NCBI GenBank assembly: GCA_913048125.1
Contig: CAJWWL010000003.1
Span: 1-36,988 of the forward strand
Origin: an uncultured Opitutia bacterium
Lineage (GTDB): Bacteria > Verrucomicrobiota > Verrucomicrobiia > Opitutales > JABJCN01
Length of the DNA: 36,988 bases
Reading direction: 5' to 3'
Part shown: one piece after another, positions 7,971-32,159 of the stretch
How the letters are laid out: every line of letters starts with the position of its first letter
Position numbering within the stretch: the first letter of the stretch is position 1
Position numbers and translations under genes: made by a program
Notes under the pieces: model-generated
Told to the model about the DNA's origin: nothing
The model's input: only the letters and a program-made list of their open reading frames with translations
Database searches by the model: none

Positions 7971-7984
7971 CCTATACAGGTTAT

Positions 7985-9310: not shown

Positions 9311-9370
9311 GGATTTATCTTACTATCCTAAGAATATTCGAAGCGAGACTTTTTACGACATCATTATCCT

Positions 9371-16528: not shown

Positions 16529-17869
16529 ATGAATAACCACATGACCAAAAACCAATCCATGAAGTGTAACGACCTGCCTGGGCATTTTTCCCGTCGCGAA
16601 TTCCTCCATGTTGGCATGATCGGAGGATTGGGTCTGACCCTTCCTGAGTTCTTGAGAATGAAAGCTCATGCGGCTCAGAAGCATTATGATTCTGTGGAAG
16701 GCAAAGCCAAGAGTGTTATTCATATCTACCTGCCTGGTGGAATGGCTCACCAAGAGTCTTTCGATCCAAAACCTTATGCGCCCCTAGAATATCGAGGCCC
16801 CATGTCTCACATTCCAACCAAGATCACTGGTGAACGTTTTGGGGAGACTTTTAAAGAAACTGCCAAGATTGCGGACAAAATCACGGTATGCCGTTCCATG
16901 AGTCATGGTGAGGCCGCTCACGAGCGTGGCACTCACAACATGTTTACAGGCTATCGCCCAAGTCCAGCAATTCAGTTTCCTAGCATGGGCAGTGTGGTTA
17001 GCCATGAGTTTGGTTCACGCAAGAGCCTTCCTCCCTATGTCTGTATTCCTAACGTACCCAACGAGTTTGCAGGCAGTGGCTACCTAAGCAGTGCATACGG
17101 GCCGTTTGGCCTTGGTAGTGATCCAGCCTCGGATGGTTTCTCTGTGCGAGATCTTGGCTTACCCAAAGACATCTCACTTGGACGCTTCGATCGGCGCAAG
17201 AGCATACTCAACACAGTTGATGATCATTTTCGAAAGATGGAGAAGTCCGACAAGCTAAGCGCCATGGACAGTTTCTACAGCGACGCTTATCAGCTCATCA
17301 GTTCTAAAGAAGCTCGCGAAGCTTTCGACATCAACAAGGAAGATGCCAAGTTACGCGAACGTTACGGTCAGAATCAGGCTGGTCAGCGTATGCTTCTTGC
17401 CCGCCGTCTCGTCGAGGCTGGTGTTCGTTTCGTTTCTCTTACATACGGAGGTTGGGACCACCACCAAAATATTGAAGCGGCTTTTCAGCGGCAAGGACCC
17501 GACTTGGATAAGGCTTTTGCGTCTCTTATCACCGATCTTGATGATCGTGGACTGCTTGACGAGACGCTTGTCATGATCTCTTCCGAATTTGGTCGCACAC
17601 CCAAGATCAACGCGAACAATGGTCGTGACCACTGGCCACGAGTTTTTAGTGTCGTATTGGCAGGTGGAGGGATCAAGCGAGGCAGCATCTACGGATCTTC
17701 AGATGCTTTTGCAGCAATGCCTGAGGATGATCCACTATCTGTGGAAGATTTAGCAACCACTGTCTACAACCAACTGGGTATTGTTGCCGATAAGGAATTA
17801 ATGGCTCCGGGTGACCGACCAATGGAAATCGTAGATGGCGGAAAGGTCGTCAAGGAACTGCTCGCCTAG
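16529..17869 (+). CDS. DUF1501 family protein (Tat-exported), copy B
   Basis: Twin-arginine signal SRREFL; LPGGMAHQESFDPKP, GWDHH, SEFGRTPKIN, GRDHW. The start could be 16541 or 16559. Confidence 0.9.
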   Translation: MNNHMTKNQSMKCNDLPGHFSRREFLHVGMIGGLGLTLPEFLRMKAHAAQKHYDSVEGKAKSVIHIYLPGGMAHQESFDPKPYAPLEYRGPMSHIPTKITGERFGETFKETAKIADKITVCRSMSHGEAAHERGTHNMFTGYRPSPAIQFPSMGSVVSHEFGSRKSLPPYVCIPNVPNEFAGSGYLSSAYGPFGLGSDPASDGFSVRDLGLPKDISLGRFDRRKSILNTVDDHFRKMEKSDKLSAMDSFYSDAYQLISSKEAREAFDINKEDAKLRERYGQNQAGQRMLLARRLVEAGVRFVSLTYGGWDHHQNIEAAFQRQGPDLDKAFASLITDLDDRGLLDETLVMISSEFGRTPKINANNGRDHWPRVFSVVLAGGGIKRGSIYGSSDAFAAMPEDDPLSVEDLATTVYNQLGIVADKELMAPGDRPMEIVDGGKVVKELLA

Positions 17870-17948
17870 GACACCGGATGTTCCGGAATTACAAGCTTTG
17901 GAGTCCACAAGACTTTTTGGCCGTTAAACCCTTAGCTACTAAGCCACA

Positions 17949-20447
17949 ATGACTCGCTTGCTACCGAATCTGCTTCTCTTTTTATTTAGCGTAACCGCCA
18001 GCCTTGATGCGGCTTCTCCTATCCTTTCTCGTATCCTACCGAGAGGTGGTCAGCAGGGGAGTACGGTTGAGATGGTCTTTACCGGTCAGCGGCTAAATGA
18101 TATCCACCAAGTACTTTTCTACACCCCCGGGTTTTCGGTTGAAAAGGTAGTTGGGGACGAGAAGAACGCCAACCGAGCAACCGCAACTGTAACGATTGCT
18201 CCAGACTGTAAGCTTGGTGAGCACAAGTTGCGTATTGTCACACGAACTGGCTTGAGTACTCTCAGCACTTTCTGGGTTGGGCCCTATGAAACGGTTTTGG
18301 AGGTTGAGCCCAATAGCGACTTTTCAAGTCCTCAGGTCATTGCAATAAATCGTACTGTTGAAGGGCGAGTAGACAATGAAGACGTGGATTACTATGCCGT
18401 TGAAGCAAAGAAAGGTCAGCGATTGAGCGTAGAGGTTGAAGGTATTCGCCTAGGAGGTCAGAATAACGTTATCTTTGATCCTTACGTTGCCATTTTAAAC
18501 AGCAAACGCTTCGAGCAGGCTGCTGCCGATGATACGCCTCTGCTCTTACAGGACTGCTTTGTCTCAATTGTTGTTCCAGAGGACGGCACCTACTGGGTAG
18601 AAGTTCGCGATAGCTCCTACGCTGGGAACGCCAACAGCAGATATCGTCTCCATATTGGTAACTTTCCTCGTCCTCAGGTTGTCTTTCCTGCTGGTGGTAA
18701 AGCAGGTACTGAACTGGAGGTCAGCTTTCTTGGAGACAAGGCAGGCTTGCCGAAAAAGAAGATTCAACTGCCTGCAAAATCAGATCCGGCCTTCGCTCTT
18801 CTAGCCGAAGCAGACGGTCAACGTTCGCCTTCTGCCAACCGCTTTCGTGTTAGCGACTTCGCCGATGTCCTAGAAGTTGAGCCCAATGAAAATCGCACCA
18901 AGGTTCCCGTTCCAGACGTTACTCCGCCCATGGCCTTTAACGGAATCATACAGGACGAGGAAGATATTGATTACTTCACCTTCATGGGGAAGAAGGGCCA
19001 GCGCCTAACATTTACCGCTCATGCACGTTCTCTACGCTCTCCTCTTGATCCTGTCCTGAACGTCTACTTTGGCGAGGGCAAAGAGTTCAAGAATCTGAAG
19101 GGAAGCGATGATGTTGGCCGTAACCCTGACAGTAAATTTGATCTAACTCTGCCCGCCGACGGAAAATACTACGTCCGCATCACAGATCATCTTCGCAAAG
19201 GCGGTCCTGATTACATCTACCGCATAGAAGCCGAAGCCATGCGCCCAGAGCTCAAGACATTCCTTCCACGCTATGGCAACAACGATACCCAGTCTCGTCA
19301 GATGATTCCGGTGGCTCGAGGCAATCGTTATGCTAATGTTATTCAGGTGACCCGTCGCAACATTCGCGCTGAACTAGATTACATCGCTCATAATTTGCCT
19401 GCAGGGATTACGATGCATGCAGCACGTCTTCCAGCTAGCATCGATAGATTCCCTGTCGTATTTGAGGCTGCCCCGGATGCTCCTCTCGGCGGTTCGCTTG
19501 TGGACCTCAAGGTACGACAGGTTCTCACCGAAGAAGAGGCTAAACAGGCCAATCGAACTCCGGCAGAAGGGGGCTATGGACATAGTTTCACTCTCGTCCG
19601 TGGTCCTAACAACACAGACATGTACATGACCACGGTTGACCGTTTAGCTGTTTCTGTAACCGAAGAGGTTCCTTTCCATATAGAAATCGATAAGCCTGCC
19701 ACCCCTATCCTTCAAAGGGGTTCCATGAACCTAAAGGTTCGAGCTATCCGAAAGGAGGGTTTCGATGATCCAATAGTTTTGCGAATGCTTTGGAATCCAC
19801 CGGGCATCGGTTCCCGAGGAACGGTTACCATCCCTAAGGGCAAGAGCGAAGCGAATTATGGCTTAACCGCTAACGGTGGTGCCACTGTTGGGACATGGAA
19901 GATTGCTATTCTTGGCGAGGCCGCTGCGCCAGGCGGACAAGTCTTTGCCTCCTCTCGGTTGACTGATCTTGTCATCGAAGAGCCGTATCTAAACATGACC
20001 ATCGAGATGGCCGCCATCGAGCGCGGAAAAGAAGGAGAGGTATACTGCAAGATTGAAACACTTCGTGAATTTGAAGGTGAGGCAGATATACGACTCGTGG
20101 CCCTTCCAGCACTGACCAGTACTGTTCCTCTCAAAATCAATAAGGACACCAAAGAAATTTCCTTTCCCGTTAAGACTGAAATCAAGGCTCGTGCTGCCAC
20201 CACGAAAAACCTTTTCATTTCCGCCAGCATTCCGGTGGCCGGACACAATCTCAGCCAGACAGTTGCTAGTGGTGGGCAAATCCGCATCGATAACCCACCA
20301 CCACCTCCGAAAAATCCCACAACAAAGCCTAAAGCATCACCAAAGCCAGCCAAAGTTGTAGCAAAAGCACCGGCTGAAAAACCGAAAAAGCCCCTCAGTC
20401 GCTTAGAAAAGCTTCGTCTAATTGCCAAGGAACGTGCCGGGAATTGA
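17949..20447 (+). CDS. Secreted multi-PPC/Ig-like domain protein of DUF1501 module B, with Pro/Lys-rich C-terminal tail
   Basis: Signal peptide; PRGGQQGSTVE, two EVEPN repeats, DVDYY/DIDYF, YRL/YRI. Paralog of 6507..7970. Confidence 0.8.
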   Translation: MTRLLPNLLLFLFSVTASLDAASPILSRILPRGGQQGSTVEMVFTGQRLNDIHQVLFYTPGFSVEKVVGDEKNANRATATVTIAPDCKLGEHKLRIVTRTGLSTLSTFWVGPYETVLEVEPNSDFSSPQVIAINRTVEGRVDNEDVDYYAVEAKKGQRLSVEVEGIRLGGQNNVIFDPYVAILNSKRFEQAAADDTPLLLQDCFVSIVVPEDGTYWVEVRDSSYAGNANSRYRLHIGNFPRPQVVFPAGGKAGTELEVSFLGDKAGLPKKKIQLPAKSDPAFALLAEADGQRSPSANRFRVSDFADVLEVEPNENRTKVPVPDVTPPMAFNGIIQDEEDIDYFTFMGKKGQRLTFTAHARSLRSPLDPVLNVYFGEGKEFKNLKGSDDVGRNPDSKFDLTLPADGKYYVRITDHLRKGGPDYIYRIEAEAMRPELKTFLPRYGNNDTQSRQMIPVARGNRYANVIQVTRRNIRAELDYIAHNLPAGITMHAARLPASIDRFPVVFEAAPDAPLGGSLVDLKVRQVLTEEEAKQANRTPAEGGYGHSFTLVRGPNNTDMYMTTVDRLAVSVTEEVPFHIEIDKPATPILQRGSMNLKVRAIRKEGFDDPIVLRMLWNPPGIGSRGTVTIPKGKSEANYGLTANGGATVGTWKIAILGEAAAPGGQVFASSRLTDLVIEEPYLNMTIEMAAIERGKEGEVYCKIETLREFEGEADIRLVALPALTSTVPLKINKDTKEISFPVKTEIKARAATTKNLFISASIPVAGHNLSQTVASGGQIRIDNPPPPPKNPTTKPKASPKPAKVVAKAPAEKPKKPLSRLEKLRLIAKERAGN

Positions 20448-20466
20448 ACGCAAGACACCAAATTTG

Positions 20467-23400
20467 ATGAGACAAATTACAAAATTCCTTTCCTTCATTT
20501 TCATTCTTGGGTGGTCCCACTGGTGCTTTTCTGAGGATGCTCCAAAACCTTCTCAGATTAACCAGTCTGAGCAGAAAGATTCCCCTGAACCAGCTAAGCC
20601 TATCGAGGCAGTGAGACCGACTGAGTCTGCTACAGCACTACAGACTAAACCCAGTCCCACTGAGCCGAAACCAACCGATACAAAGCCTGCTGAGGTCGAG
20701 AAGCCTGAAACTCCTGCTATCGCCAAACCTGTTGCTGCTGCTCCTGTTGCTCCAGACTTTCATTCTGATATTCGTCCAATTCTTGAAGTGGCATGTGTCC
20801 AATGCCACGGTGCCGAGAAACAAAAGGGAGACTTACGGCTCGACCAACTTGTTCACGCGACCAAGGGCGGAGACGGTGGTCCTGCAATCGTTGCCAAGGA
20901 TATCGTAAATAGCCTTCTCATCGAGCGTATCGAATTGCCAGCTGACGATGACGAAATTATGCCACCTAAGGGTGATCCACTCAGTCCTGAACAGGTCAAG
21001 CTTCTAAAAGACTGGATTATTGCTGGTGCGCCTTGGCCTACTGAAGTGGCGCTTCGACAAAAGACCCTCGAAGATCTTGCCCGTGAACGACGTTTCGCAG
21101 CAAAGCAGATCGTTGACGTAAAGGTGTACCCACCTGAAGTCAGCTTGGAGACATCTTCTGACCATCATACCCTCGTGGTCATGGCAACATACGCAGACGA
21201 GAGTACTCGTGATGTAACTCACGACTCCAAATTTGTAATATCGGATTCATCTATCGCCAAACTTGAAGGTCAAACTCTTCTTCCTGCAAAGGATGGTAAT
21301 ACAAGTCTCCGCATTAGTTTTGCTGATCACAATGTCGATGTACCCGTCAACGTGAAGGAGTCGTCTACGCCTCGTCCAAATAGTTTTCGCCTGGATGTGA
21401 TGCCAGTTCTCATGCGCGCTCAATGTAACAATGGTTCATGCCACGGTTCGGCTCGCGGACAGGACGGTTTCATGCTTTCTCTCTTTGGTTATGATCCAGA
21501 AGGGGATCATCATCGGATCACCAGAGAGGAGTCTACTCGCCGCATTAACCTTGCTCTGCCACACGAGAGTATGCTCCTTGAAAAGGCTATTGAGGCGGTC
21601 CCCCACACAGGTGGTAAGCTTTTCGAGAAGGACAGCCAGTATTACAACGCGATTCTTGCTTGGCTTAAAGGCGGTGCTAAGAACGACCCCGCAGATATCG
21701 CCCAACCCACCAGTATTGAAATCCTTCCCTCTAAACTCCTCCTCGAAGGTGCTGGAGCGACTCAACAGATGACCGTTACTGCCCACTATTCTGACGGGAC
21801 TGACCGGGATGTAACTTCATTGGTTATCTTTCAAAGTAACAACGATAACAGCGCGACTATCAGCGAGGATGGTCTTGTCACTGCTCACAAGCCAGGTGAA
21901 GCCTTCATAATGGCTCGCTTTGCCACCTTTACAGTCGGTAGTCAGGCAATAGTTATCCCAGCAGGACTAAAGTACAAACGTCCAGAAGTCGCAGAAACCA
22001 ACTACGTGGACAAGCTTGTTAACGAGAAGCTCCATAAATTACGCATCATACCCTCTGGTAAGTGTACAGACGAATCCTTCATTCGTCGTGCCTCACTAGA
22101 TATCATCGGAAAGCTCCCTACACTTGAAGAGCAGGAATCTTTCCGAACCAGCGCTGATCCTAAGAAGCGTCAAAAGCTAATCGACAATCTTTTGGACCGC
22201 AAAGAGTTCACTGAGATGTGGGTTATGAAGTTCGCCGAACTTCTGCAAATCCGCACCCAGCAGAACAATCAGGTCAGTTACAAGGCCACACTTCTTTACC
22301 ACAACTGGCTCAAGGAACGTATTGCTGCCAACGTACCTATAAATAAAATCGTTCAGGAAATTCTCTCCTCGACTGGAGGCACGTTTAAGACCCCTGCCAC
22401 CAACTACTATCAGATCGAGCGTGATACCCTCAAGGTCGCCGAGAATGCTGCACAGGTTTTCATGGGCATGCGTATTCAATGCGCACAGTGCCACAATCAC
22501 CCTTTTGATCGCTGGACAATGGATGATTATTACTCCTTTGCTGCTTTCTTTTCCCAGATTGGTCGCAAGAACGCAGAAGATCCAAGGGAGGTCATCGTTT
22601 ACAATCGTCGATCTGGAGACATGAAGCACATGGTCGATGGTCGTGTTATGGAGCCAAAGTTTCTTGGTGGCGCTGTTCCTGAAATACCCCGAAGTGCCGA
22701 CCGTCGTGCTATTCTCGCTGAGTGGCTTGCTTCAGAGCAGAACCCTTACTTTGCTTCCAACTTGGCAAATATCGTCTGGCAACACTTCTTTGGAGTCGGG
22801 ATCATTGAGCCTGTTGACGATGTTCGTATCAGCAATCCAGCCTCGAACCCTGAACTGCTCGAAACCCTTGCCGGAAAGTTCACCGAGTACAATTATGACT
22901 TCAAACGACTTGTCCGCGATATCTGTAACTCCCAGACCTACCAGCGTACCACTCGCACCAATGAGAGTAACGAATCCGATACTCGCAACTTCTCGCATGG
23001 TAATCTCCGCAGACTTCGTGCAGAAGTCCTGCTTGATGTTATAACGCAGGTCACTCAGACGAAAAATAAGTTCCGAGGTCTACCACTTGGAGCTCGCGCA
23101 GTGCAGATCGCAGATGGCAACGTCAGCAATTACTTCCTCACGACTTTTGGCCGTGCCACTCGTGAAACAGTTTGTTCTTGCGAAGTCAAAATGGAACCCA
23201 GTCTATCTCAGGCGCTCCATTTACTTAATGGCGATGTTACTCATAATCGAATTCGTAGTGGTGGACTCGTAAATCAGCTCGTCAACCAAGAGAAGAAGCC
23301 TCCCTCTGAAACGCTAGAATTCCTTTACCGTCGCACCCTTTGTCGTCCCCCGACCAAAGAAGAGGCTGCGCCCATATTAGCTGTTGTTGAGAAGGAGGAA

Positions 23401-23472
23401 GACAAACGCGCTATTTTTGAGGATGTCTTCTGGGCACTACTGAACTCTAAGGAGTTTATTTTCAACCACTAG
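20467..23472 (+). CDS. Planctomycete cytochrome c + two Ig-like domains + DUF1549/DUF1553 protein
   Basis: Start moved to ATG 20467, which is followed by a signal peptide. Pro/Thr/Glu/Lys linker; CVQCHG...MPPKG; two ATY/AHYSDG..RDVT Ig domains; CNNGSCHG; CAQCHNHP; WALLNSKEFIFNH. Confidence 0.88.
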   Translation: MRQITKFLSFIFILGWSHWCFSEDAPKPSQINQSEQKDSPEPAKPIEAVRPTESATALQTKPSPTEPKPTDTKPAEVEKPETPAIAKPVAAAPVAPDFHSDIRPILEVACVQCHGAEKQKGDLRLDQLVHATKGGDGGPAIVAKDIVNSLLIERIELPADDDEIMPPKGDPLSPEQVKLLKDWIIAGAPWPTEVALRQKTLEDLARERRFAAKQIVDVKVYPPEVSLETSSDHHTLVVMATYADESTRDVTHDSKFVISDSSIAKLEGQTLLPAKDGNTSLRISFADHNVDVPVNVKESSTPRPNSFRLDVMPVLMRAQCNNGSCHGSARGQDGFMLSLFGYDPEGDHHRITREESTRRINLALPHESMLLEKAIEAVPHTGGKLFEKDSQYYNAILAWLKGGAKNDPADIAQPTSIEILPSKLLLEGAGATQQMTVTAHYSDGTDRDVTSLVIFQSNNDNSATISEDGLVTAHKPGEAFIMARFATFTVGSQAIVIPAGLKYKRPEVAETNYVDKLVNEKLHKLRIIPSGKCTDESFIRRASLDIIGKLPTLEEQESFRTSADPKKRQKLIDNLLDRKEFTEMWVMKFAELLQIRTQQNNQVSYKATLLYHNWLKERIAANVPINKIVQEILSSTGGTFKTPATNYYQIERDTLKVAENAAQVFMGMRIQCAQCHNHPFDRWTMDDYYSFAAFFSQIGRKNAEDPREVIVYNRRSGDMKHMVDGRVMEPKFLGGAVPEIPRSADRRAILAEWLASEQNPYFASNLANIVWQHFFGVGIIEPVDDVRISNPASNPELLETLAGKFTEYNYDFKRLVRDICNSQTYQRTTRTNESNESDTRNFSHGNLRRLRAEVLLDVITQVTQTKNKFRGLPLGARAVQIADGNVSNYFLTTFGRATRETVCSCEVKMEPSLSQALHLLNGDVTHNRIRSGGLVNQLVNQEKKPPSETLEFLYRRTLCRPPTKEEAAPILAVVEKEEDKRAIFEDVFWALLNSKEFIFNH

Positions 23473-23474
23473 AT

Positions 23475-26411
23475 ATGCCTGATTTTTCGATGAGACTCGC
23501 TATGAAACTACATTCAACCGCTATTTTTCTTGCAGCTCTGCTAGCACAAAGCCCTCTCGCTATAGCTGAGTCTGCCACGAAAATCACATGGGACGATCAT
23601 ATCTTCGCACTCATGGAGGGTGCCTGCATTTCCTGCCATAACCCCGATAAGACCAAGGGCGGTCTCGACCTTAGTTCTTACAATAATCTCCTCAAGGGAG
23701 GCAGTAGCGGCGAGAGCGTGACTGCTGGCGATCCAGAATCCAGTCTCCTCTACAAGGTGACTGCCCATCTCGAAGAGCCATTTATGCCACAGAACAAGGA
23801 TAGGCTTCCTGACGCGCAAATTGCTCTGCTTAAGAGCTGGATTTCTGGCGGTCTCCTTGAAACTGCAAGTAGTAAGGCTAAGAAGGCAAAAAGCTCTGGT
23901 TTCAATCTTGCGCTAAAGGTGACTAACTCTGGGAAGCCAGAGGGGCCACCGCCCATGCCTGAGCATCTTCCGCTGCAACCTCATGTTTTGAGTGAACGCC
24001 CCGCTGCCGTATCAGCACTAGCTACCAGCCCTTGGGCACCACTGGCCGCTGTTGCTGGTCAAAAGCAGGCATTACTTTACAACACTGATACTTTTGAACC
24101 TGTAGCCATTCTACCTTACGAAGAGGGGTTCATTGAATCCCTAAAGTTCAGTCCAAATGGTGCCTTGCTTGTAGCGGGTGGAGGACGTGGAGGCAAGGTG
24201 GGCCGCGTAATAGCTTGGGATGTAAAGACTGGTCAGCAAGTCCTCAAAGTTGGGCAAGAGTACGACACTGTTCTATCTGCTGACATAACGGCTGACCAAG
24301 CTACTGTTGCCATTGGTAGTCCAAGCAAGCGTATCAAACTTCATGATACAGCCGACGGAGAACTTCTTCACAACATCAAGAAACACTCCGAGTGGGTTAC
24401 TTCCGTATCCTTCTCTCCTGATGGAGTTTTACTGGCAACTGGCGACCGTAATGGAGGTGTTCACGTTTGGGAAGCCTTCTCAGGGAACCTCTTTTACACC
24501 CTCGAAGGAAATAAAGGCGCGATCACTAGCATCACTTGGCGATCCGACTCAAATATTGTGGCTACTGCTTCTGCAGATGGTTCAGTGCGTCTCTTTGCCA
24601 TGACTAACGGTCGCCAAGTCCGGAACTGGACGGCTCATGGAGGAGGGGTACTTTCTTTGCACTTTGCACGTAACGGTCAGCTTGTTTCCTCCGGTCGTGA
24701 CAAACAAGTTAAAGTTTGGGCACAGGACGGCAAACAGATCAAAGCCTTAGGTGGCTTTACTGACCTTCCTCTGGAAGTTGCCTTCACGCAGGATGCCAAG
24801 CGTGTCATTGTAGGCGATTGGCTAGGATCTGTGACCGTCTGGGATATTGAAACGGCCAAACAGGTCGCTACCTTATCCGCTAATCCCCCATCTCTAAACA
24901 ATCGTCTCGCTGCCGCCCAGCAACAGGTTGTCGCTGCTGATGCCGCGGAGAAGAAGGCAAAGTCAGTCCTCGATGCCGCCAAGGCTGTTACTGCACAGCT
25001 TGCGAAGCAGTTGACAGATGCCAGATCAGCGCTTGCTGCACGTACCACTGAAAAGCAACAAGCTGACACTGCACTGGCTGCTTCTAAGCAACAGCAGTCC
25101 GCTGCTACCTCTGCACGAACTGCGGCGAGCAACAATTTGAAGACGCAGCAGGACAAACTTAGCCAAATAAATGCCGTGCTCAAAACAGAGTCTGATAAGC
25201 TGACTGCAAACAAAGCCAATCTTTCAACGTGGAAGGCGCAAGTTACTGCGCGTACTAGTCAGTCTGAGTCCCTCAAAACTGCGGCAGATAATGCAAATGC
25301 CGAGTCTGCCAAAATTCCAGAGGATGCTGCTCTCAAGGATGCTGCCTCTAAGGCGGTTGCTGCATGGCAGGCCATGGATAAAGCCCTTTCTGAAGCGCGT
25401 TCCAAAGAGAATACTGCAGCAACCAATGTTCAGAACTCTGAATTTCAAGTCACTACCGCGCGAAAGCAGTCTGAAACACAGGCAAGTGCCGTCAAGGCTG
25501 GGCAAAACGACCTTGCTACAAAAGACCAAGCCTTAAAGGTAGCTACCGCAAAGGTGACTGCAGATGCCAAGGCTAGTGCTGAAAAGGTGGCGCAACTGAA
25601 GGTCGCACAAGACGCTGTTTCTAAATCCGAGGCTGCTCATAAGGCGCAGGTCGAAAAGGAAAAGGCTCCAGCACAGGCTCACTCGACTTCCGTTGCAAAA
25701 TTAGCCGCTGCCCAAAAGAAGGTTGCTAAGTGGAAGGCTGAGCAACTCAACGTAAACCGACACCTTGAAATTGCTTCATTGAATAACCTAGATTCCGAAC
25801 TTGTTGTTCTGAAAAGTGCTTCTGCAGACACTAAAGCCACCTTTGAGAAGGCTGAAGCAGACCTCTTAGCTGTACAGAATCAACTCACTGAAGCGCCTAC
25901 ACGCATCAAAGAAGCTGAAGTCTCTCTTTCTGGTCGTAAGTCTACGGTAACTGCTGAAGCTCAGAAGTTAGGTACACTCAATGAGGATGTGTCTAGACGG
26001 GAAGCATTTCTCAAAAAAGCCGATGCTTTTGGCTCTGAAATCGACTCCATTCAGTCGAAGGAACCCCAGAACGCAGAGTTGGCGGATGCCTCCAAAAATT
26101 TCAAAGAACAGGTTCGCAGCAAGTTTCAATCAGATCTTGATAATGCAAAGGGCAGAGTTGCTGCACAGCAGCAAGTGCTTGCCCAAGCTAACGAAGCCGT
26201 AGTTGCAGCAGAGAGACATCTAGTGGAAATGAAAACCCTTCCTGAAAAGTTGCCAGCAATCATAGCTGAGCGTACCAAAATTCGAGACTTAGCAAAGTCT
26301 GCCTATGAAAGTGCTCAGGCTTCTGAAATCCAATTTACTCAGAAGGTTGATGCGCAACGTAAGAAGGTTGACGGCTTAACCGGTCAGTATTTAGCCCTTC
26401 TGCCCAAGTAA
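23475..26411 (+). CDS. Planctomycete cytochrome c + WD40 propeller + long Ala/Lys/Gln-rich coiled-coil protein
   Basis: Signal peptide (start may be 23490 or 23502); CISCH...MPQ; WD40 repeats (HSEWVTSVSFSPDG, AHGGGVLSL); about 500-aa helical C-terminal region. Confidence 0.85.
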   Translation: MPDFSMRLAMKLHSTAIFLAALLAQSPLAIAESATKITWDDHIFALMEGACISCHNPDKTKGGLDLSSYNNLLKGGSSGESVTAGDPESSLLYKVTAHLEEPFMPQNKDRLPDAQIALLKSWISGGLLETASSKAKKAKSSGFNLALKVTNSGKPEGPPPMPEHLPLQPHVLSERPAAVSALATSPWAPLAAVAGQKQALLYNTDTFEPVAILPYEEGFIESLKFSPNGALLVAGGGRGGKVGRVIAWDVKTGQQVLKVGQEYDTVLSADITADQATVAIGSPSKRIKLHDTADGELLHNIKKHSEWVTSVSFSPDGVLLATGDRNGGVHVWEAFSGNLFYTLEGNKGAITSITWRSDSNIVATASADGSVRLFAMTNGRQVRNWTAHGGGVLSLHFARNGQLVSSGRDKQVKVWAQDGKQIKALGGFTDLPLEVAFTQDAKRVIVGDWLGSVTVWDIETAKQVATLSANPPSLNNRLAAAQQQVVAADAAEKKAKSVLDAAKAVTAQLAKQLTDARSALAARTTEKQQADTALAASKQQQSAATSARTAASNNLKTQQDKLSQINAVLKTESDKLTANKANLSTWKAQVTARTSQSESLKTAADNANAESAKIPEDAALKDAASKAVAAWQAMDKALSEARSKENTAATNVQNSEFQVTTARKQSETQASAVKAGQNDLATKDQALKVATAKVTADAKASAEKVAQLKVAQDAVSKSEAAHKAQVEKEKAPAQAHSTSVAKLAAAQKKVAKWKAEQLNVNRHLEIASLNNLDSELVVLKSASADTKATFEKAEADLLAVQNQLTEAPTRIKEAEVSLSGRKSTVTAEAQKLGTLNEDVSRREAFLKKADAFGSEIDSIQSKEPQNAELADASKNFKEQVRSKFQSDLDNAKGRVAAQQQVLAQANEAVVAAERHLVEMKTLPEKLPAIIAERTKIRDLAKSAYESAQASEIQFTQKVDAQRKKVDGLTGQYLALLPK

Positions 26412-26463
26412 CCCAAGTAGGATACTTATTATCGTAGATTGATTGATCCCAACAGTCATGGGA

Positions 26464-26491
26464 TTGACATCACCCAAGTGCGGGACACCAT
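26464..26491 (+). promoter_or_regulatory. Candidate sigma70-type promoter of the mod/sulfur-relay operon
   Basis: Perfect TTGACA at 26464-26469 and weak -10 (CACCAT, 26486-26491) with a 16-nt spacer, 9 nt before ATG 26501. Confidence 0.35.
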
Positions 26492-26500
26492 TTTTCCGCT

Positions 26501-28045
26501 ATGTCCGAGCCGAGTTTTCAGCGCAGTAACTCCTGGCCGCTAATTGCCTTCTTCTCCATTGCGGTACTAGTCGTACTTGTTGTGGTAATGCGGAGTCCTA
26601 CTTCGAATTCAATAAATGCAGATGGGGCTAGGGAGTTAAGAGTCTACTGTGCTGCCTGTGTCCGGCTTGCAGTTGAGGAGGCAGCCCGCCAGTTCGAGAA
26701 AGAGCTCGGGGTGAGAGTTGTTCTAGAATATGCCAATAGCGGAGTTTTGGCCAATCGGCTCAAGACTGATCGTGAGGGTGGCTTATCTACTGCCGACGTG
26801 TACATACCCGCTGATTTTTCATTCACTGAACGAGCACAGGCAGAAGGTTTAACTGCTGAAGCTCTACGCGTTGCAACATGGAAAGTCGTACTTGGTGTGA
26901 AGCCAGGACTCGACCTTGGGATTTCCAATTGTGATGAGGTACTGGATAAGAATATCTCTTTCGTACTTTGTGACCCGTTGGCCGGGGTAGGTCGGAAGAC
27001 GAAAAAGATGTTGGTGAACTCTGGACACTGGGAGGCGATTGATGCAGCCAAGGCTTCATCCTTTCCCACGGTTACTGAAGCAGCTTTGGCTGTGAAGGAG
27101 AATGTAGGTACGCAAGCCGCATTTGTTTGGGATTCTACGGCTCGTCAGCATGGTTTGCAGGTCTTGGAATTACCCGAGCTTAAGGCTAGTAAGGCTGATA
27201 TCTCTGCTGCAGTGGCTTCAGCTAGTGAGCAACCCGCGTTGGCTTTGCAGTTTCTTCGATACCTTGCGGCACCTCAAAAAGGTGGGCAGGTTTTTGCACG
27301 TCACAAGTACACACCTTTTCCAGGAGATCCTTGGTCTTTACGACCTAGACTCCGCGTGGATTGTGGGGGTGTTAACCGGGAGGCTGTACAAAAGACCATT
27401 GCCGAATTTGAGCAGCGAGAGGGTTGTGATGTGGATGTTGTTTACGCTGGTTGCGGTACACTGGTTGGCAAGATGCAGACTGGTGACCAGGGGTTACCTG
27501 ATCTTTTTGTAACCTGTGATGCCAGCTATCTTGATAAGGCTCAGGACGCGATGGGCAGTCCATTTGGTCCAGACTTGAAAGTCTCCAGCACGCGTATCGT
27601 GATGCTTGTAGCTAAGGGGAATCCCTTGGGCATTCTAAGGTTGGAGGATTTGGCTAAGGTGGGTCTTCGCCTTGGCACTACAGATCCTCAGGCAAGTACA
27701 CTTGGAGCATTAAGTCATGAGCTTATTCGTGAAACTGGTAAATTTGCACAAGTTGAGTCTAACATCACCATGATGGCAGATACTGCCCACACGCTCATTC
27801 AGAGTATGGAGGCAGGAGAAAAGCTGGATGTAGTTATGGTTTACGAGGCCAATATTCAGCACTTGAAGGATCGCTTTGATTACGTTCCATTGAAGCAACC
27901 TCGGGCAATCGCTGTGCAGAATGTAGCAGCCAGCAAGATATCTGAATATCCTCAATTGGCCCAGCGTTTCATGAATCGATTGGTGTCAGAGATTTCACGC
28001 CACCGTTTTGAGCAACTCGGATTTCAGTGGGTCGCCGAGAAATGA
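26501..28045 (+). CDS. modA: Tandem-duplicated ModA-like (molybdate/tungstate-type) ABC substrate-binding protein with N-terminal membrane anchor
   Basis: Two ModA-like units (LRVYCAAC...EYANSGVL...ADVYIPAD...FVWDS; LRVDCGGV...YAGCGTL...PDLFVTCD...KGNPLGI...VVMVYE). Hydrophobic N-terminal helix without a lipobox. Substrate not proven. Confidence 0.75.
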   Translation: MSEPSFQRSNSWPLIAFFSIAVLVVLVVVMRSPTSNSINADGARELRVYCAACVRLAVEEAARQFEKELGVRVVLEYANSGVLANRLKTDREGGLSTADVYIPADFSFTERAQAEGLTAEALRVATWKVVLGVKPGLDLGISNCDEVLDKNISFVLCDPLAGVGRKTKKMLVNSGHWEAIDAAKASSFPTVTEAALAVKENVGTQAAFVWDSTARQHGLQVLELPELKASKADISAAVASASEQPALALQFLRYLAAPQKGGQVFARHKYTPFPGDPWSLRPRLRVDCGGVNREAVQKTIAEFEQREGCDVDVVYAGCGTLVGKMQTGDQGLPDLFVTCDASYLDKAQDAMGSPFGPDLKVSSTRIVMLVAKGNPLGILRLEDLAKVGLRLGTTDPQASTLGALSHELIRETGKFAQVESNITMMADTAHTLIQSMEAGEKLDVVMVYEANIQHLKDRFDYVPLKQPRAIAVQNVAASKISEYPQLAQRFMNRLVSEISRHRFEQLGFQWVAEK

Positions 28046-29307
28046 GTGGAGCTGAAGACAACTATCGAGTTTCTTCTGACCGACCATTTCTTCTAGTTCT
28101 TGCCGTCCTTGGTGGTAGCTACTTGTTTCTTATCGCAGCCATGGTTGTGGCTGATCTAATATTTTTAGACTACCGTGACCGTCCTGTTTTTGGGCCTGAA
28201 ATTGTCGAAGCTAGCCGCTATCCCGGAGATGCTTCTGGAGTAAAAATCACTTTGGAGTCTTCTCGCCGTTACTACTATCAAGGTGGACGAAACGAATTGG
28301 GGTTCCGGATGGGTGGAAATCTAATCAAAAAGGACGGTGTTTTTGATGCAGTTGAAGAAGAGGTTTTGTTAGTTTCAGAGACTCCCGAAGGGGCGGTCAC
28401 AGCTTCCTTTCGTCCTGAGGTGCGGGTAGTTGGTATCCAACTACATGAGGGGGTGGCCACTTTGCGTATGGATTTGCCTCACGGTTTGCTATGGGGCGAG
28501 TTCATACGTGTGCGGGATTCTGGATCTGAGTTCTGGGATGGTGTTCATGAAATCACAGATACCACACAGGATGAGCTTTCCTTTGTTGTCGGAGAGCAGA
28601 GCAAGATTGTGAATGCCCTCTCACTCAGCCGTCCAAACCCTCTCATACAAGCTCTCAGAAGTAGGGATATACAATTTTCGATCAAGCTGAGCCTAGTTAG
28701 TTGCACGGTGACAACACTACTTTCACTTTGGGTAGCCATTCCGATCGGATATCTCATGAGTCGTTTCACCTTTCGTGGAAAAGCCTTTGTGGATACTTTA
28801 TTGGATATACCTGTTGTCTTGCCTCCACTTGTGGTCGGCCTGAGTTTACTTATCCTTTTCCGCTATGTCCCAGACTGGCTCAGCGATGCAGTAGTCTATA
28901 AGTGGCCCGCAGTTGTGTTGGCACAGTTCATGGTAGCCTGTGCCTTTGCCGTGCGTACAATGCGGGTGACTTTTGACCAGATTTCACAGCGATACGAACA
29001 GGTGGCATTGACTCTAGGTTGCAACCGACAGCAAGCATTTTGGAGAGTTGTCCTTCCACAGGCTCGAGGTGGTGTTTTAGCTGCGGGAACACTGGCCTGG
29101 GCTAGAGCACTTGGTGAGTTTGGCCCCATATTAGTATTTGCTGGTGCAACTCGCCAAAAGACGGAAGTTTTACCCACTAGTGCGTTTCTAGAACTTCAAG
29201 CTGGTCGAACGGAGGGAATGCTAGCCGTCTCTTTGATCATGATTGCCACAGCGGCTCTAGTTTTTGTCGTCGCGCGAACCTTTGGGATGAAAAGGATTTT
29301 TTCATGA
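28042..29307 (+). CDS. modB: ModB/CysT-type ABC permease with a ~155-aa inserted soluble domain
   Basis: LLDIPVVLPPLVVGLSLL, EAA-like loop YEQVALTLG, WARALGEFG. ATGA overlap with the modA stop (start moved to 28042). Confidence 0.85.
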   Translation: MSGAEDNYRVSSDRPFLLVLAVLGGSYLFLIAAMVVADLIFLDYRDRPVFGPEIVEASRYPGDASGVKITLESSRRYYYQGGRNELGFRMGGNLIKKDGVFDAVEEEVLLVSETPEGAVTASFRPEVRVVGIQLHEGVATLRMDLPHGLLWGEFIRVRDSGSEFWDGVHEITDTTQDELSFVVGEQSKIVNALSLSRPNPLIQALRSRDIQFSIKLSLVSCTVTTLLSLWVAIPIGYLMSRFTFRGKAFVDTLLDIPVVLPPLVVGLSLLILFRYVPDWLSDAVVYKWPAVVLAQFMVACAFAVRTMRVTFDQISQRYEQVALTLGCNRQQAFWRVVLPQARGGVLAAGTLAWARALGEFGPILVFAGATRQKTEVLPTSAFLELQAGRTEGMLAVSLIMIATAALVFVVARTFGMKRIFS

Positions 29308-29957
29308 TTGCGGTAGACAATCTTTCTATTCGGCAGGGTGACTTTTTGTTGGACGGAGTTTCGCTTGAGCTCTCCGATGGTGAATATGGTGTGTTGATGG
29401 GCCGTAGTGGTTGTGGTAAGACCACTGTATTAGAAGCAATCTGTGGACTTCGACCCATCATAGGTGGACGCATCCTTCTTGGTGGTCGCGATGTTTCTGT
29501 TTTACCACCAGCAGAGAGAGGCATTGGCTATGTTCCTCAAGATGGAGCTTTGTTTCCCGATATGCCGGTTTGGGAGCAGTTGGCATTCTCAATGCTCATT
29601 CGAAAAATACCAAAATCCCAAGTGGAGGCTCGTGTTCGAGAATTAGCTAAAGATCTTGGTATCACTCATTTGCTCGAGCGTCTGCCAGTTGGTCTTAGTG
29701 GAGGAGAAAGGCAACGGGTGGCTCTTGGACGAGCATTGGCTGTTAAGCCACGTTTCCTGTGTATGGATGAGCCTTTGAGTGCTCTGGATGAGGATATCCT
29801 TGAAGAAATCTGTGAGTTGTTTACGCAAACTATCAAAAAGGAAAACGTGACCGCCTTGCATATTACCCACAGCAAAGCCGAGGCGGCTCGTCTCGGTGAT
29901 ACTCTCTTTCATTTAGTTGGTGGCCAACTTCAGAAAGTAGGACCAAACGAGGAATGA
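29304..29957 (+). CDS. modC: ModC-like ABC ATPase without C-terminal TOBE domain
   Basis: Walker A GRSGCGKT, Q-loop GYVPQD, signature LSGGERQR, Walker B/D-loop MDEPLSALD, H-loop ITH. Only 217 aa. Confidence 0.88.
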   Translation: MIAVDNLSIRQGDFLLDGVSLELSDGEYGVLMGRSGCGKTTVLEAICGLRPIIGGRILLGGRDVSVLPPAERGIGYVPQDGALFPDMPVWEQLAFSMLIRKIPKSQVEARVRELAKDLGITHLLERLPVGLSGGERQRVALGRALAVKPRFLCMDEPLSALDEDILEEICELFTQTIKKENVTALHITHSKAEAARLGDTLFHLVGGQLQKVGPNEE

Positions 29958-30229
29958 AGGTACGGTTTCAGCTATGGGGTCAACTACGTAAGGCGGCTGG
30001 AATACCCGCTCCTGAAGTAGAATTAAGTTTTGGTAGTGTAGCCGCGGATGCAATCAAGGTTTTGGCAGATGATTTTCCTGACCTGCAGTCAATTCTCTTG
30101 GATGATGGGGGAGAAGTACGTCCCATTATCCTCGTATTTCGTGATGGTCAGCAATTGGAACCTCATGATTCAGAGCCGTTGTCAGAGGGCTCCGAATTGA
30201 CGTTGATGTCTCCAATCGCGGGAGGATGA
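29954..30229 (+). CDS. MoaD/ThiS family ubiquitin-like sulfur carrier protein
   Basis: 91 aa with beta-grasp pattern MKVRFQLWGQLRKAAG and C-terminal PIAGG. ATGA overlap with modC. Confidence 0.9.
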   Translation: MKVRFQLWGQLRKAAGIPAPEVELSFGSVAADAIKVLADDFPDLQSILLDDGGEVRPIILVFRDGQQLEPHDSEPLSEGSELTLMSPIAGG

Positions 30230-30230
30230 C

Positions 30231-30983
30231 ATGCTCACAAATGCTGAAAAAGCCATTTATGAGTGGCAGATGTGGGTGCCTGGTATTGGCGAGGAAGGTC
30301 AGCAGAAGCTTAAGGATGCCACCGTATTGATTTCTCGCTGTGGTGGTTTGGGCGGTTTGGTTGCCTATGAGTTGGCCGCGGCAGGTGTTGGTAAGCTTGT
30401 TATCGCTCATGCTGGTAACGTAAAGCCCAGTGACTTACACCGACAGCTTCTGATGACGGCAGACTGGGTTGGTAAGCCACGGATCGATTCTATAGCGAGA
30501 CGCTTGAGTGATTTGAATCCAAGAGTCGAGGTGGTTGGGATTCCTGAAAATATATCTGAAGACAATGTGTCGAAACTCGTGGGCAGAGCCGACGTTGTAG
30601 TCGATTGTGCTCCATTGTTTGAAGAGCGTCTTCTACTCAACCGTGAGTCTGTGCGTCAGTCAAAACCCATGGTTGAGTGTGCGATGTATGAATTACAGTT
30701 TCACATTACGACATTCCTTCCCAGTAAATCACCATGCCTTGCCTGTCTGCACCCCGAAGCGCCTTCTCATTGGAAGCGGAAATTTCCTGTCTTTGGCGCA
30801 GTATCTGGTACGGTTGGATGCATGGGGGCAATGGAAACCATAAAGCTGATTACGGGCATCGGAGAACCACTTACTGGCAGTTTGCTCTCCATGGATCTAC
30901 GTGATTTTCAGGTTATGAAGACAAAAATTGCCCGCAGAAAAGATTGCACCGTCTGCGCAGATGCTGACTTTGGAGCCGAATAA
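30231..30983 (+). CDS. HesA-like ThiF/MoeB/E1 family protein with degenerate adenylation motifs
   Basis: GEEGQQKLKDATVL, GGLG, LAAAGVGKL, LHRQLLMTADWVGKPR (HesA-like), Zn-binding CLAC and CTVC. Confidence 0.85.
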   Translation: MLTNAEKAIYEWQMWVPGIGEEGQQKLKDATVLISRCGGLGGLVAYELAAAGVGKLVIAHAGNVKPSDLHRQLLMTADWVGKPRIDSIARRLSDLNPRVEVVGIPENISEDNVSKLVGRADVVVDCAPLFEERLLLNRESVRQSKPMVECAMYELQFHITTFLPSKSPCLACLHPEAPSHWKRKFPVFGAVSGTVGCMGAMETIKLITGIGEPLTGSLLSMDLRDFQVMKTKIARRKDCTVCADADFGAE

Positions 30984-30995
30984 ATTTTTTTGAAT

Positions 30996-32153
30996 ATGGA
31001 TAACGAGCAACTGAATCGCTACAGTCGGCACATTCTTCTTCCCGAAATGGGAGTGGAGGGACAGGAAAAACTGCTTGCGGCCAAAGTATTGCTGGTGGGC
31101 GCAGGCGGCTTGGGTTGTCCTGCGGCATTGTATCTTGCTGCGGCAGGTGTAGGTCGCATTGGTATCATCGATTTCGACAAGGTAGACGCCTCCAATCTCC
31201 AGCGCCAAGTCCTCTACTCAACAGCGGATATCGGTAAGTACAAAGTGGATGTGGCTAAGGAGCGTATTCAGGCGTTAAATCCAGATGTCCAAGTGGATTG
31301 CATTCGTGAACGCTTGAATTCTGACAATGCGCTAGAACTTTTTAGTCAGTATGATCTTGTAGTGGACGGTACAGATAACTTTGCGACCCGTTATCTTGTA
31401 AATGACGCCTGTGTTCTAACCGGTACGCCCAACATCTATGGAAGTATCTTCCGTTTTGAGGGACAGATGACCATATACGCTCACCCAGAAGGGCCTTGCT
31501 ATCGTTGTTTATTTCCCGAACCACCTAGCCCCGGGGAGGTGCCGAATTGTGCGGAAGGTGGGGTGCTTGGAGTCCTGCCTGGAATGGTTGGTGTTGCCCA
31601 GGCTACCGAGGCGATCAAGCTGATTCTTGGTCAGGGTCAACCTCTTTTAAACCGAATGCTTATCTACGATGCCCTAGAGATGAGATGGAAGGAACTTAAG
31701 ATTAAACGTGATCCACATTGTCCAGTCTGCGGGGATAAGCCTAGTGTAACTGAACTGATTGATTACGAGGCGTTCTGTGGAGGCGCCAAACAAGAACCAG
31801 AAGTTGAAGAGGTTTTGCCTGAAGATGGTATTGTGCAATTGGATGTCGGTTCAGCAGCAAAGATGCTGGAGCAATCTGAACCACCTACGCTTGTAGATGT
31901 GCGAACGGACATGGAATGGCAGATTGCTCGAATCTCCGGAGCGAGGCTGATCCCGCTTCAAGAGTTCGGTGAGCGCTGGCGGGAATTAGATGGATTGCAA
32001 GATCATCCTATTATCCTTCAGTGCCATCATGGGATGCGAAGCTATCAAGCTGCAATGTTCCTTAAAGAAAAAGGATTCAATACGCTCTATAATTTAGTTG
32101 GGGGTATTGATTCTTGGTCCGAACAGATCGATCCAGAGGTAGCTCGCTACTGA
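30996..32153 (+). CDS. moeB: MoeB/MoeZ-type adenylyltransferase/sulfurtransferase (ThiF domain + rhodanese)
   Basis: RYSRH, GAGGLG, DFDKVDASNLQRQ, DGTDNF, CYRC, NCAEGGVLG, CPVC; rhodanese DVR...CHHGMRS...GGIDSW. ATG 30996 preferred over TTG 30990. Confidence 0.93.
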   Translation: MDNEQLNRYSRHILLPEMGVEGQEKLLAAKVLLVGAGGLGCPAALYLAAAGVGRIGIIDFDKVDASNLQRQVLYSTADIGKYKVDVAKERIQALNPDVQVDCIRERLNSDNALELFSQYDLVVDGTDNFATRYLVNDACVLTGTPNIYGSIFRFEGQMTIYAHPEGPCYRCLFPEPPSPGEVPNCAEGGVLGVLPGMVGVAQATEAIKLILGQGQPLLNRMLIYDALEMRWKELKIKRDPHCPVCGDKPSVTELIDYEAFCGGAKQEPEVEEVLPEDGIVQLDVGSAAKMLEQSEPPTLVDVRTDMEWQIARISGARLIPLQEFGERWRELDGLQDHPIILQCHHGMRSYQAAMFLKEKGFNTLYNLVGGIDSWSEQIDPEVARY

Positions 32154-32159
32154 TATCAA

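Follow-up and report, generated by a model that had tools for sequence, protein, structure and literature searches.

Pumps of the ModABC type are the textbook suppliers of molybdenum cofactors, and in sulfur-carrier and ubiquitin-like systems the textbook role of E1-fold proteins is adenylation. The described systems closest to the locus reported here are the importers of the ModABC/WtpABC/NifC class (E. coli ModA, 1AMF/1WOD; archaeal 3CFX and 3CIJ; ModBC-A, 2ONK), the E1-like enzymes MoeB and ThiF (E. coli MoeB 1JW9, ThiF 1ZUD), and HesA of the nif clusters of Paenibacillus, cyanobacteria and Frankia, a ThiF-family protein without a rhodanese domain that the available part of one report links genetically to molybdenum and sulfur supply (PMC6361004). 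A further relative is class 4e of Iyer, Burroughs and Aravind (2006), which in the accessible portion of that survey combines a ubiquitin-like protein, a rhodanese-less E1 and an anion ATP-binding cassette (ABC) transporter in one operon (PMC1779556). Here we analyze a window of 36,988 nt from an uncultured Opitutia bacterium (the whole stretch of DNA under study, which is the entire contig C3, CAJWWL010000003.1, of assembly GCA_913048125.1), in which an ABC importer with a double ModA-fold binding protein stands beside a small E1-like protein that we call E1s. A preliminary description of this DNA, made from the letters alone, had proposed a new system here, and the transporter together with E1s, joined in some lineages by a ubiquitin-like protein (Ubl), indeed forms a real, conserved and apparently undescribed module; a literature search confined to an open-access library found no description of it. 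We read the locus as an importer of the oxyanion class with an E1-like partner that would not adenylate, to which a housekeeping MoeZ has been appended in this family, and we put the probability of this reading at roughly 0.55.

The source genome (G000) comprises 3.63 Mb in 407 contigs with a completeness score of 91.6%. Open reading frame (ORF) listing and Pfam and NCBIfam profile scans of the window proteins, with the junctions read directly from the sequence, gave the following genes for the module and the enzyme behind it:

26501-28045, + strand: double ModA/WtpA-fold binding protein, 514 aa, with two SBP_bac_11 domains
28042-29307, + strand: ModB/NifC/WtpB-type permease, with BPD_transp_1 at residues 237-417
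29304-29957, + strand: short ABC ATPase, 217 aa, with ABC_tran; best NCBIfam match WtpC
29954-30229, + strand: MoaD/SAMP-like beta-grasp protein (Ubl), 91 aa, ThiS family (PF02597)
30231-30983, + strand: small E1-like, ThiF-only protein (E1s), 250 aa, ThiF (PF00899) 173.5 bits
30990-32153, + strand: MoeB/MoeZ-type ThiF plus rhodanese protein (MoeZ), 387 aa, ThiF 308.8 bits and Rhodanese 65.3 bits

The layout given in the preliminary description holds throughout. All genes of 16529-32153 lie on the + strand in the order claimed (ORF listing, Pfam, NCBIfam), ATGA overlaps are present at 28042-28045, 29304-29307 and 29954-29957, a 1-nt gap at 30230 separates the 91-aa ThiS-family gene from the 250-aa ThiF gene, and an 89-nt spacer lies between the upstream PSCyt1+WD40 gene (end 26411) and the double-ModA gene (start 26501). 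Likewise as claimed, Pfam found no MoaA, MoaC, MoaE, MogA, MoeA, ThiG, CysM or JAB peptidase among the 24 large ORFs of the window. The permease start was taken as the ATG at 28042, with an earlier GTG at 28027 in the ORF listing, and MoeZ has an alternative ATG at 30996. A promoter and terminator scan of 26000-33000 gave no signal exceeding that of shuffled sequence, and the 89-nt spacer contained no site.

Conservation was followed at three scales. In an order-level sample of 41 genomes (the source genome and 40 relatives from its order), seven of the 40 relatives encode a full-length double ModA. The whole arrangement, including a block of DUF1501 and PSCyt genes upstream, recurs only in the same-genus genome G002. 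The gene order is ModA2-ModB-ModC-Ubl-E1s-MoeZ in G003 of the same family, E1s-ModA2-ModB-ModC in G027 and Ubl-E1s-ModA2-ModB-ModC in G034; G013 has the importer alone. A wider scan with one genome per species yielded 34 double-ModA loci, annotated against our own query set only and including four already seen among the order-level relatives; they belong to Verrucomicrobiota, Planctomycetota, one Poribacteria metagenome-assembled genome (MAG) and a few oddly labelled MAGs. E1s adjoins the importer, upstream or downstream, in 24 of these 34 loci, and the other ten consist of six on contigs too short to judge and four with ample flanks and no E1s. The third sample comprised 151 genomes of the class (at least 90% completeness requested), 19 with double ModA (hereafter module genomes) and 132 others. 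E1s is matched strongly (E <= 1e-100) in 17 of the 151, all of them among the 19 module genomes, and in 13 of the 17 the E1s and double-ModA genes share a contig within about 4 kb of each other; two weaker E1s matches fall in other genomes.

In two relatives the module genes are interrupted. A frameshift within seven consecutive T divides the E1s gene of G034, a reduced genome of 2.0 Mb (L031 8450-9212), and reflects decay or a sequencing error; in G003 (C141) both the double ModA (174+377 aa) and ModB (183+325 aa) are split by frameshifts or assembly errors. A second ABC set, composed of an FtsX-type permease, an ATPase and a protein without a Pfam family, flanks the module in many lineages, among them Planctomycetota and Akkermansiaceae loci. 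Orthologues of this set are found in the source genome on the short contig C344 (1-3615), where an FtsX-type permease and an ABC ATPase accompany a 384-aa lipoprotein-like protein without a Pfam match; linkage of C344 to C3 is limited by the contig ends of both.

The E1s protein has no rhodanese domain and reaches no NCBIfam equivalog cut-off. Residues were mapped by alignment to E. coli MoeB (1jw9_B), and conservation was counted in the best 120 database homologues, which are 64-98% identical to E1s and include proteins of cultured planctomycetes, with Roseimaritima ulvae and Gimesia among the named sources; identity between phyla is 64-70%. Asp130 of MoeB is replaced by Pro128, Asp62 (presumably the ribose-binding residue) by His60, Arg14 by Trp12 and Lys86 by Arg84, and Pro, His, Trp and Arg occupy these four positions in 120/120 homologues. 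Gly41, Arg73, Lys86 and Asp130 belong to the conserved adenylation machinery of MoeB, and in a relative mutation of the equivalent Asp abolishes activity, the arginine finger being dispensable, according to the available parts of two reports (PMC12355090, PMC13139853). The crossover-loop Cys of MoeB is also gone from E1s and from 111/120 homologues; E1s has a four-residue deletion where MoeZ has its loop Cys. Equivalents of Gly41 and of the phosphate-contacting Arg73 and the zinc-site cysteines are kept; G39, C169, C172, C239 and C242 of E1s are conserved in 120/120. E1s has lost the loop Cys as well as the Asp residues that serve Mg/carboxylate activation and ribose binding, and from the sequence we infer that it no longer adenylates in the canonical way.

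E1s is close in length to MoeB and ThiF and shares with them the ThiF fold, the glycine loop, Arg73 and the four zinc cysteines, but its catalytic-site changes are fixed and its partner is an importer rather than MoaD/MoaE or ThiS/ThiG. The inactive halves of eukaryotic heterodimeric E1s are ThiF-fold partners that have lost catalytic residues. Yeast Tcd1 of the Tcd1-Tcd2 pair is likewise a ThiF-fold protein that has lost catalytic residues and is retained as a partner; E1s lacks both the Asp that Tcd1 retains and the arginine finger that Tcd1 contributes, as far as the accessible text of the report goes (PMC13139853). A further difference is the lack of an active paralogue encoded regularly next to E1s, MoeZ adjoining it only in this family. 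The preliminary description had called the 250-aa protein HesA-like, a label for which we found no specific support: E1s is simply a ThiF-family member, database names of its homologues such as 'HesA/MoeB/ThiF family protein' are generic, and an ESM Atlas look-up returned generic ThiF clusters only. It is like HesA in belonging to that family and in having no rhodanese domain, but HesA is defined by its nif cluster, and nifDK-type genes over the cut-off are present in 0/19 module genomes against 17/132 others. The two are thus set apart by context, not by sequence comparison; the proposed nitrogenase analogy fails, and a nitrogenase/HesA link was rejected. A complex prediction for the ATPase and E1s (18-row alignment each) scored 0.00, a value obtained with controls not run that weighs neither way.

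The importer belongs to a familiar class, with the same binding-protein fold, permease and ATPase families and three-gene order as ModABC/WtpABC/NifC systems, and each of its three parts is atypical, as had been proposed: a double binding protein, an extended permease and a short ATPase. The periplasmic binding protein carries an N-terminal membrane anchor or signal followed by domain 1 (about residues 46-259) and domain 2 (about 284-510). It passes the TIGR01256 modA equivalog cut-off (70.4 against 62.5 bits, summed over the two domains), and E. coli ModA matches it with only 34 bits in phmmer. An AlphaFold2 model built with 32 homologues (predicted local distance difference test score, pLDDT, 91.7; predicted template-modelling score, pTM, 0.84) contains two complete binding-protein folds, and Foldseek places tungstate- or molybdate-bound ModA/WtpA structures at the top (3cfx, 8zj8, 1wod; E about 1e-15); sulfate-binding proteins reach about 1e-12, and organic-anion binders of the ModA fold (PEB3, AcfC) are intermediate. 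Ser80, Val191 and Trp210 of domain 1 align with the anion-contacting Ser39, Val152 and Tyr170 of ModA. Among the 32 homologues C318 and C339 of domain 2 are invariant, and C309 and C50 are nearly so. By eye, C318 appears at the domain-2 position of the anion-contacting Ser39 of ModA.

The permease is extended at its N-terminus by about 200 residues, comprising one predicted helix and about 150 aa; its homologues are 419-441 aa long in the closest groups and 277-328 aa long in the others. It stays below the cut-offs of TIGR01581 (186.9 against 210.3 bits) and of TIGR02141, ModB (149.1 against 182.6). The ATPase reaches 217.5 bits against the WtpC cut-off of 440, aligned to positions 1-216 of 347, and 158 bits against the TIGR02142 (ModC) cut-off of 285.05, aligned to positions 4-217 of 353; since both matches stop after the nucleotide-binding part of the model, it has no C-terminal TOBE/Mop-type regulatory domain. 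With the WtpA model at 19.9 against 355 bits and the WtpB model at 125.3 against 340, all three parts score below the cut-offs for the WtpABC tungstate transporter. Compared with ModABC/WtpABC, therefore, the locus differs in a binding protein of two domains in one chain, the second with conserved cysteines, in an extra permease domain (in this lineage), in an ATPase without TOBE/Mop, in a permease and ATPase under every equivalog cut-off, and in a distribution that does not follow molybdenum cofactor (Moco) genes or nitrogenase. The importer would take up a small anion of the tetrahedral-oxyanion class, with the molybdate/tungstate type as the candidate to which fold and profiles point.

At class level MoaE was detected in 11/19 module genomes and in 76/132 others, giving an odds ratio of 1.0; completeness is 90-97% for the eight module genomes that lack MoaE. 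All six genomes of one genus carry the module, and only two of the six carry MoaE. A canonical Moco gene adjoins the module in 0/34 loci. In the order-level sample the exception among the module carriers is G034 (87% complete), which has the module without MoaE, MoaC or MoeA and whose only PF00384 match is NuoG-like. As the preliminary description had expected, the module thus does not track canonical Moco genes at class level, and by its phyletic pattern its conserved role is not the supply of Moco or nitrogenase.

Ubl and MoeZ, the two genes that would make this locus look like a sulfur relay, are less constant. Ubl ends in ...SPIAGG and matches the ThiS family PF02597 at 26.1 bits (cut-off 22.5), staying below the equivalog cut-offs for SAMP1 (51.3 against 60) and moaD_arch (33.2 against 49.5). 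An orthologue adjoins the E1s gene or lies within 5 kb of it in G002, G003, G004, G027 and G034. A Ubl profile found it in 8/34 double-ModA loci and in all six E1s-bearing Opitutales genomes; in five further E1s-bearing genomes outside the order the profile gave nothing in three and weak partial matches in two. Ubl is a facultative module member. In one Planctomycetia locus (L047 7453-8058, - strand) the Ubl ends in ...AIAGGL, one residue past the Gly-Gly, and this tail would need trimming before any C-terminal chemistry. The preliminary description had made sulfuration through a Ubl thiocarboxylate the core of the system; since E1s has lost its catalytic Asp and Ubl is facultative, this cannot be the core chemistry.

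MoeZ, on the other hand, keeps the equivalents of Arg14, Asp62, Arg73, Lys86 and Asp130, the DxxD motif, the loop Cys and two CxxC motifs. It scores 458.3 bits against the MoeB model NF006444, over the cut-off of 449, and 456.2 bits against the MoeZ model NF005902, under the cut-off of 647. In a whole-genome search, E1s and MoeZ of the window were the sole two ThiF-family genes of the source genome, so that MoeZ is its only canonical E1 and the sole one available for MoaD and ThiS. Both are encoded elsewhere in the genome: contig C161 holds a cluster of MoaC, MobA-like, MoaD (80 aa, with a C-terminal GG) and MoaE genes, C363 holds MoaA and MoeA, and C62 holds a ThiH-like gene followed by ThiS. 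On C205 lies a 767-aa molybdoenzyme of the FdhF/YdeP family (TIGR01701, 919 bits against a cut-off of 582), and the second PF00384 match of the genome is NuoG. MoeZ adjoins the module only in this family, namely in G002 and G003 besides the source genome (2/34 loci); a MoeZ-type E1 is present in 17/18 MoaE-positive order-level relatives and is retained in 5/5 MoaE-negative module genomes tested. We infer that MoeZ almost certainly does the housekeeping for MoaD and ThiS. Hence the earlier statement that no known acceptor pathway exists is wrong for this genome and for its MoeZ gene, given the full Moco pathway, ThiH-ThiS and the YdeP-type enzyme on other contigs; for the conserved module, which has no tie to Moco or nitrogenase, the absence of a known client pathway stands. 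In the relative G026 (C77:71197-72339) MoaE and ThiF matches share one 494-aa frame, which suggests a MoaE-MoeB fusion.

The genome inventory also brings up an alternative, in which the locus is an ordinary molybdate or tungstate uptake operon fused to a Moco sulfur relay, with E1s as a MoeB, Ubl as a second MoaD for the MoaE encoded elsewhere, and MoeZ as the giver of sulfur. We had first favoured this from the order-level sample, and the class-level profile demoted it to a rival that we now consider unlikely. It draws on the complete Moco gene set just listed, on the sole ModA-type gene and both ThiF genes of the source genome being in this operon, on MoaE and MoaC in seven of the eight order-level module genomes, on the modA cut-off passed by the binding protein and its ModA/WtpA structural neighbours, and on the additional MoaD+MoeB clusters, separate from the main Moco operon, that the accessible part of Iyer et al. 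(2006) describes (PMC1779556). It is opposed by the level MoaE frequencies with and without the module, by the genus and the G034 genome in which the module occurs without MoaE, by the missing Asp130 equivalent in every E1s homologue counted, and by the finding that no Moco gene stands in any module locus and that the only MoaE of the source genome already has its own adjacent 80-aa MoaD. Nor does the source genome contain an AFOR_N match, and a link to tungsten and aldehyde:ferredoxin oxidoreductase (AOR) was rejected; an Rfam scan of the window returned no Moco riboswitch and no other RNA match.

Several points nevertheless weigh against our own reading of an oxyanion importer with a non-adenylating partner. 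Seven of the eight order-level double-ModA genomes have both MoaE and MoaC, and the module holds the only SBP_bac_11/ModA-type gene of the source genome, so that in this genome, with its complete Moco pathway and YdeP-family enzyme, the importer may simply supply molybdate. The class-level absence of MoaE rests on one marker (at order level the MoaE and MoaC profiles are identical, both being found in the same 18/41 genomes), and related genomes are not independent counts. As for E1s, an invariant Glu132 four residues after Pro128 could substitute for the Asp, and a protein so strongly conserved might be an enzyme with altered chemistry.

Tight packing of the genes continues beyond 32153, with a gap of 6 nt between MoeZ and the next gene and an overlap of 1 nt between the stop of the latter and the start of a sulfatase gene:

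32160-33635, + strand: TctA-family membrane transporter subunit, PF01970 458.7 bits
33635-35035, + strand: sulfatase, PF00884 167.4 bits

The TctA gene is probably co-transcribed with MoeZ. It encodes the large subunit and has no adjoining TctB or TctC gene. In the same-genus genome G002 the TctA gene is missing at this place, and an orthologue of the sulfatase (85% identical) follows MoeZ.

This neighbourhood bears on a second alternative, in which the importer takes sulfate, thiosulfate or a related anion released in the breakdown of sulfated glycans, and sulfur is handled for assimilation by Ubl together with the E1-like protein and the rhodanese. Sulfatase genes follow the operon directly in this genus; sulfatases (E <= 1e-40) are found in 19/19 module genomes and 90/132 others, and all ten genomes with at least 100 first-look sulfatase candidates carry the module, counts in which related genomes are non-independent and genome size is uncontrolled. 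Sulfate-transporter models also match the permease (130 bits) and the ATPase (167.8 bits). Class 4e provides a precedent in that rhodanese-less E1s are paired there with sulfate/sulfite ABC transporters, in the portion of the survey available; by the same text class 4e has JAB, SirA, sulfate-reduction and sulfhydrylase genes (PMC1779556), none of which is among the 24 window ORFs scanned. The locus studied here differs further in a transporter of ModA rather than Sbp type and in an E1 that lacks its catalytic Asp. No sulfate-binding model is among the ten NCBIfam matches of the binding protein, which is structurally closer to ModA/WtpA than to Sbp/SubI. The scanned window ORFs contain no JAB, SirA, CysM/MetY or sulfate-reduction gene, and none was noted in the other loci within the query set used for them. 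With E1s looking non-catalytic, Ubl facultative, and sulfatase richness also tracking genome size and lifestyle, we regard this sulfur route as distinctly unlikely.

Upstream of the module lies the block to which the preliminary description had considered it attached:

16529-17869, + strand: DUF1501 protein (Pfam)
17949-20447, + strand: PPC-domain protein (Pfam)
20422-23472, + strand: PSCyt1/PSCyt2/PSD1 protein (Pfam)
23475-26411, + strand: PSCyt1+WD40 protein (Pfam)

The DUF1501 protein of this block has an SRRxFL motif of the twin-arginine translocation (Tat) type. Elsewhere in the window, 6507-12862 (- strand) holds a second PPC / DUF1501 / PSCyt1-WD40-PSCyt2-PSD1 block whose DUF1501 protein has a TRRDFL Tat-type motif, and 3796-6384 (- strand) encodes an 862-aa protein with DUF7133, cytochrome c and F5/8 type C domains, a heme-plus-carbohydrate-binding architecture in the style of the Planctomycetota-Verrucomicrobiota-Chlamydiota (PVC) bacteria. 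Sulfatase and PSCyt genes are often neighbours and of unknown function, according to the accessible portion of one study (PMC5615132).

The claim of attachment to DUF1501 divides into a part that stood and a part that did not. The predicted co-occurrence with DUF1501-bearing genomes was found: DUF1501 (E <= 1e-60) is present in 18/19 module genomes and 30/132 others (Fisher p about 1e-9 counting genomes, which carry the same non-independence and size effects as the sulfatase counts), and by family in 10/11 against 8/23 (p = 0.003). The sulfatase control shows a similar lifestyle signal. Physical linkage, by contrast, is kept only within the genus, the orthologous block (16529-26411) adjoining the module in the source genome and in G002. 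The source genome has at least 52 DUF1501 loci by tblastn (134 first-look candidates), with 13% of its bases within 9 kb of one, and in 8/34 module loci a PSCyt or DUF1501 paralogue stands no more than 8 kb away, mostly on the opposite strand. Because the block adjoins only in the same genus and DUF1501 loci are dense in this genome, we judged it a neighbour and not a component of the module.

The preliminary description had gone further and proposed that an imported metal oxyanion is sulfurated by way of the Ubl thiocarboxylate, building a pterin-independent Mo/W-S or other metal-sulfur centre for Tat-exported DUF1501 proteins. Consistent with this are the genome-level association, the Tat-type motifs of both window DUF1501 proteins, the paralogues near some module loci and the lack of a tie to Moco or nitrogenase. 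Against it, 30 DUF1501-positive genomes have no module (in eight of them all 11 scored DUF1501 candidates match), and the importer occurs without a convincing DUF1501 protein in two genomes: G013, where nothing matched at E <= 1e-60, and G034, whose single match has E = 7.6e-4. Adjacency restricted to one genus in a genome dense with DUF1501 loci, a Ubl missing from most module lineages tested and an E1s without the catalytic Asp count against it as well, and our literature search turned up no metal-content data for any DUF1501 protein. We therefore hold this model to be highly improbable.

On the reading that we prefer, an oxyanion-class importer with a non-adenylating E1-like partner, 26501-30983 would be the form that a conserved PVC module takes in this lineage. 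At the core would stand a type-I ABC importer of the ModABC/WtpABC/NifC class, made of the double ModA-fold binding protein, the permease and the ATPase without a regulatory domain, and permanently paired with the small cytoplasmic E1s. Ubl would join it in some lineages, this one included, and in this family the canonical MoeB/MoeZ enzyme (30990-32153) would have been appended. E1s would act as a non-catalytic cytoplasmic partner of the importer, whether as receiver, adaptor or regulator, and may bind the Ubl tail where there is one, and possibly the anion itself. An improbable but more specific extension is that the remodelled pocket of E1s, with acids changed to His and Pro and Lys to Arg, receives the anion or an anion-bearing Ubl tail and feeds a new pterin-independent use of the Mo/W/S type in DUF1501- and sulfatase-rich PVC bacteria. 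If this were true, the earlier phrase 'no known acceptor' would be right in that sense, even with DUF1501 not being the client.

The module places a strongly conserved E1-fold protein that has lost its key Asp in genomes with a ModA-type importer, to which, in this sample, its strong matches are confined, and the distribution of that importer matches no known pathway that uses Mo or W. In PVC genomes, genes of this module labelled 'molybdate ABC transporter' or 'molybdopterin-synthase adenylyltransferase' are probably misannotated. Since its carriers include cultured planctomycetes, the module can be tested at the bench. Its substrate would point to one of three novelties, in the specificity of the ModA fold, in the cellular use of Mo/W or in sulfur routing; the bacteria that carry the module dominate sulfated-polysaccharide breakdown.

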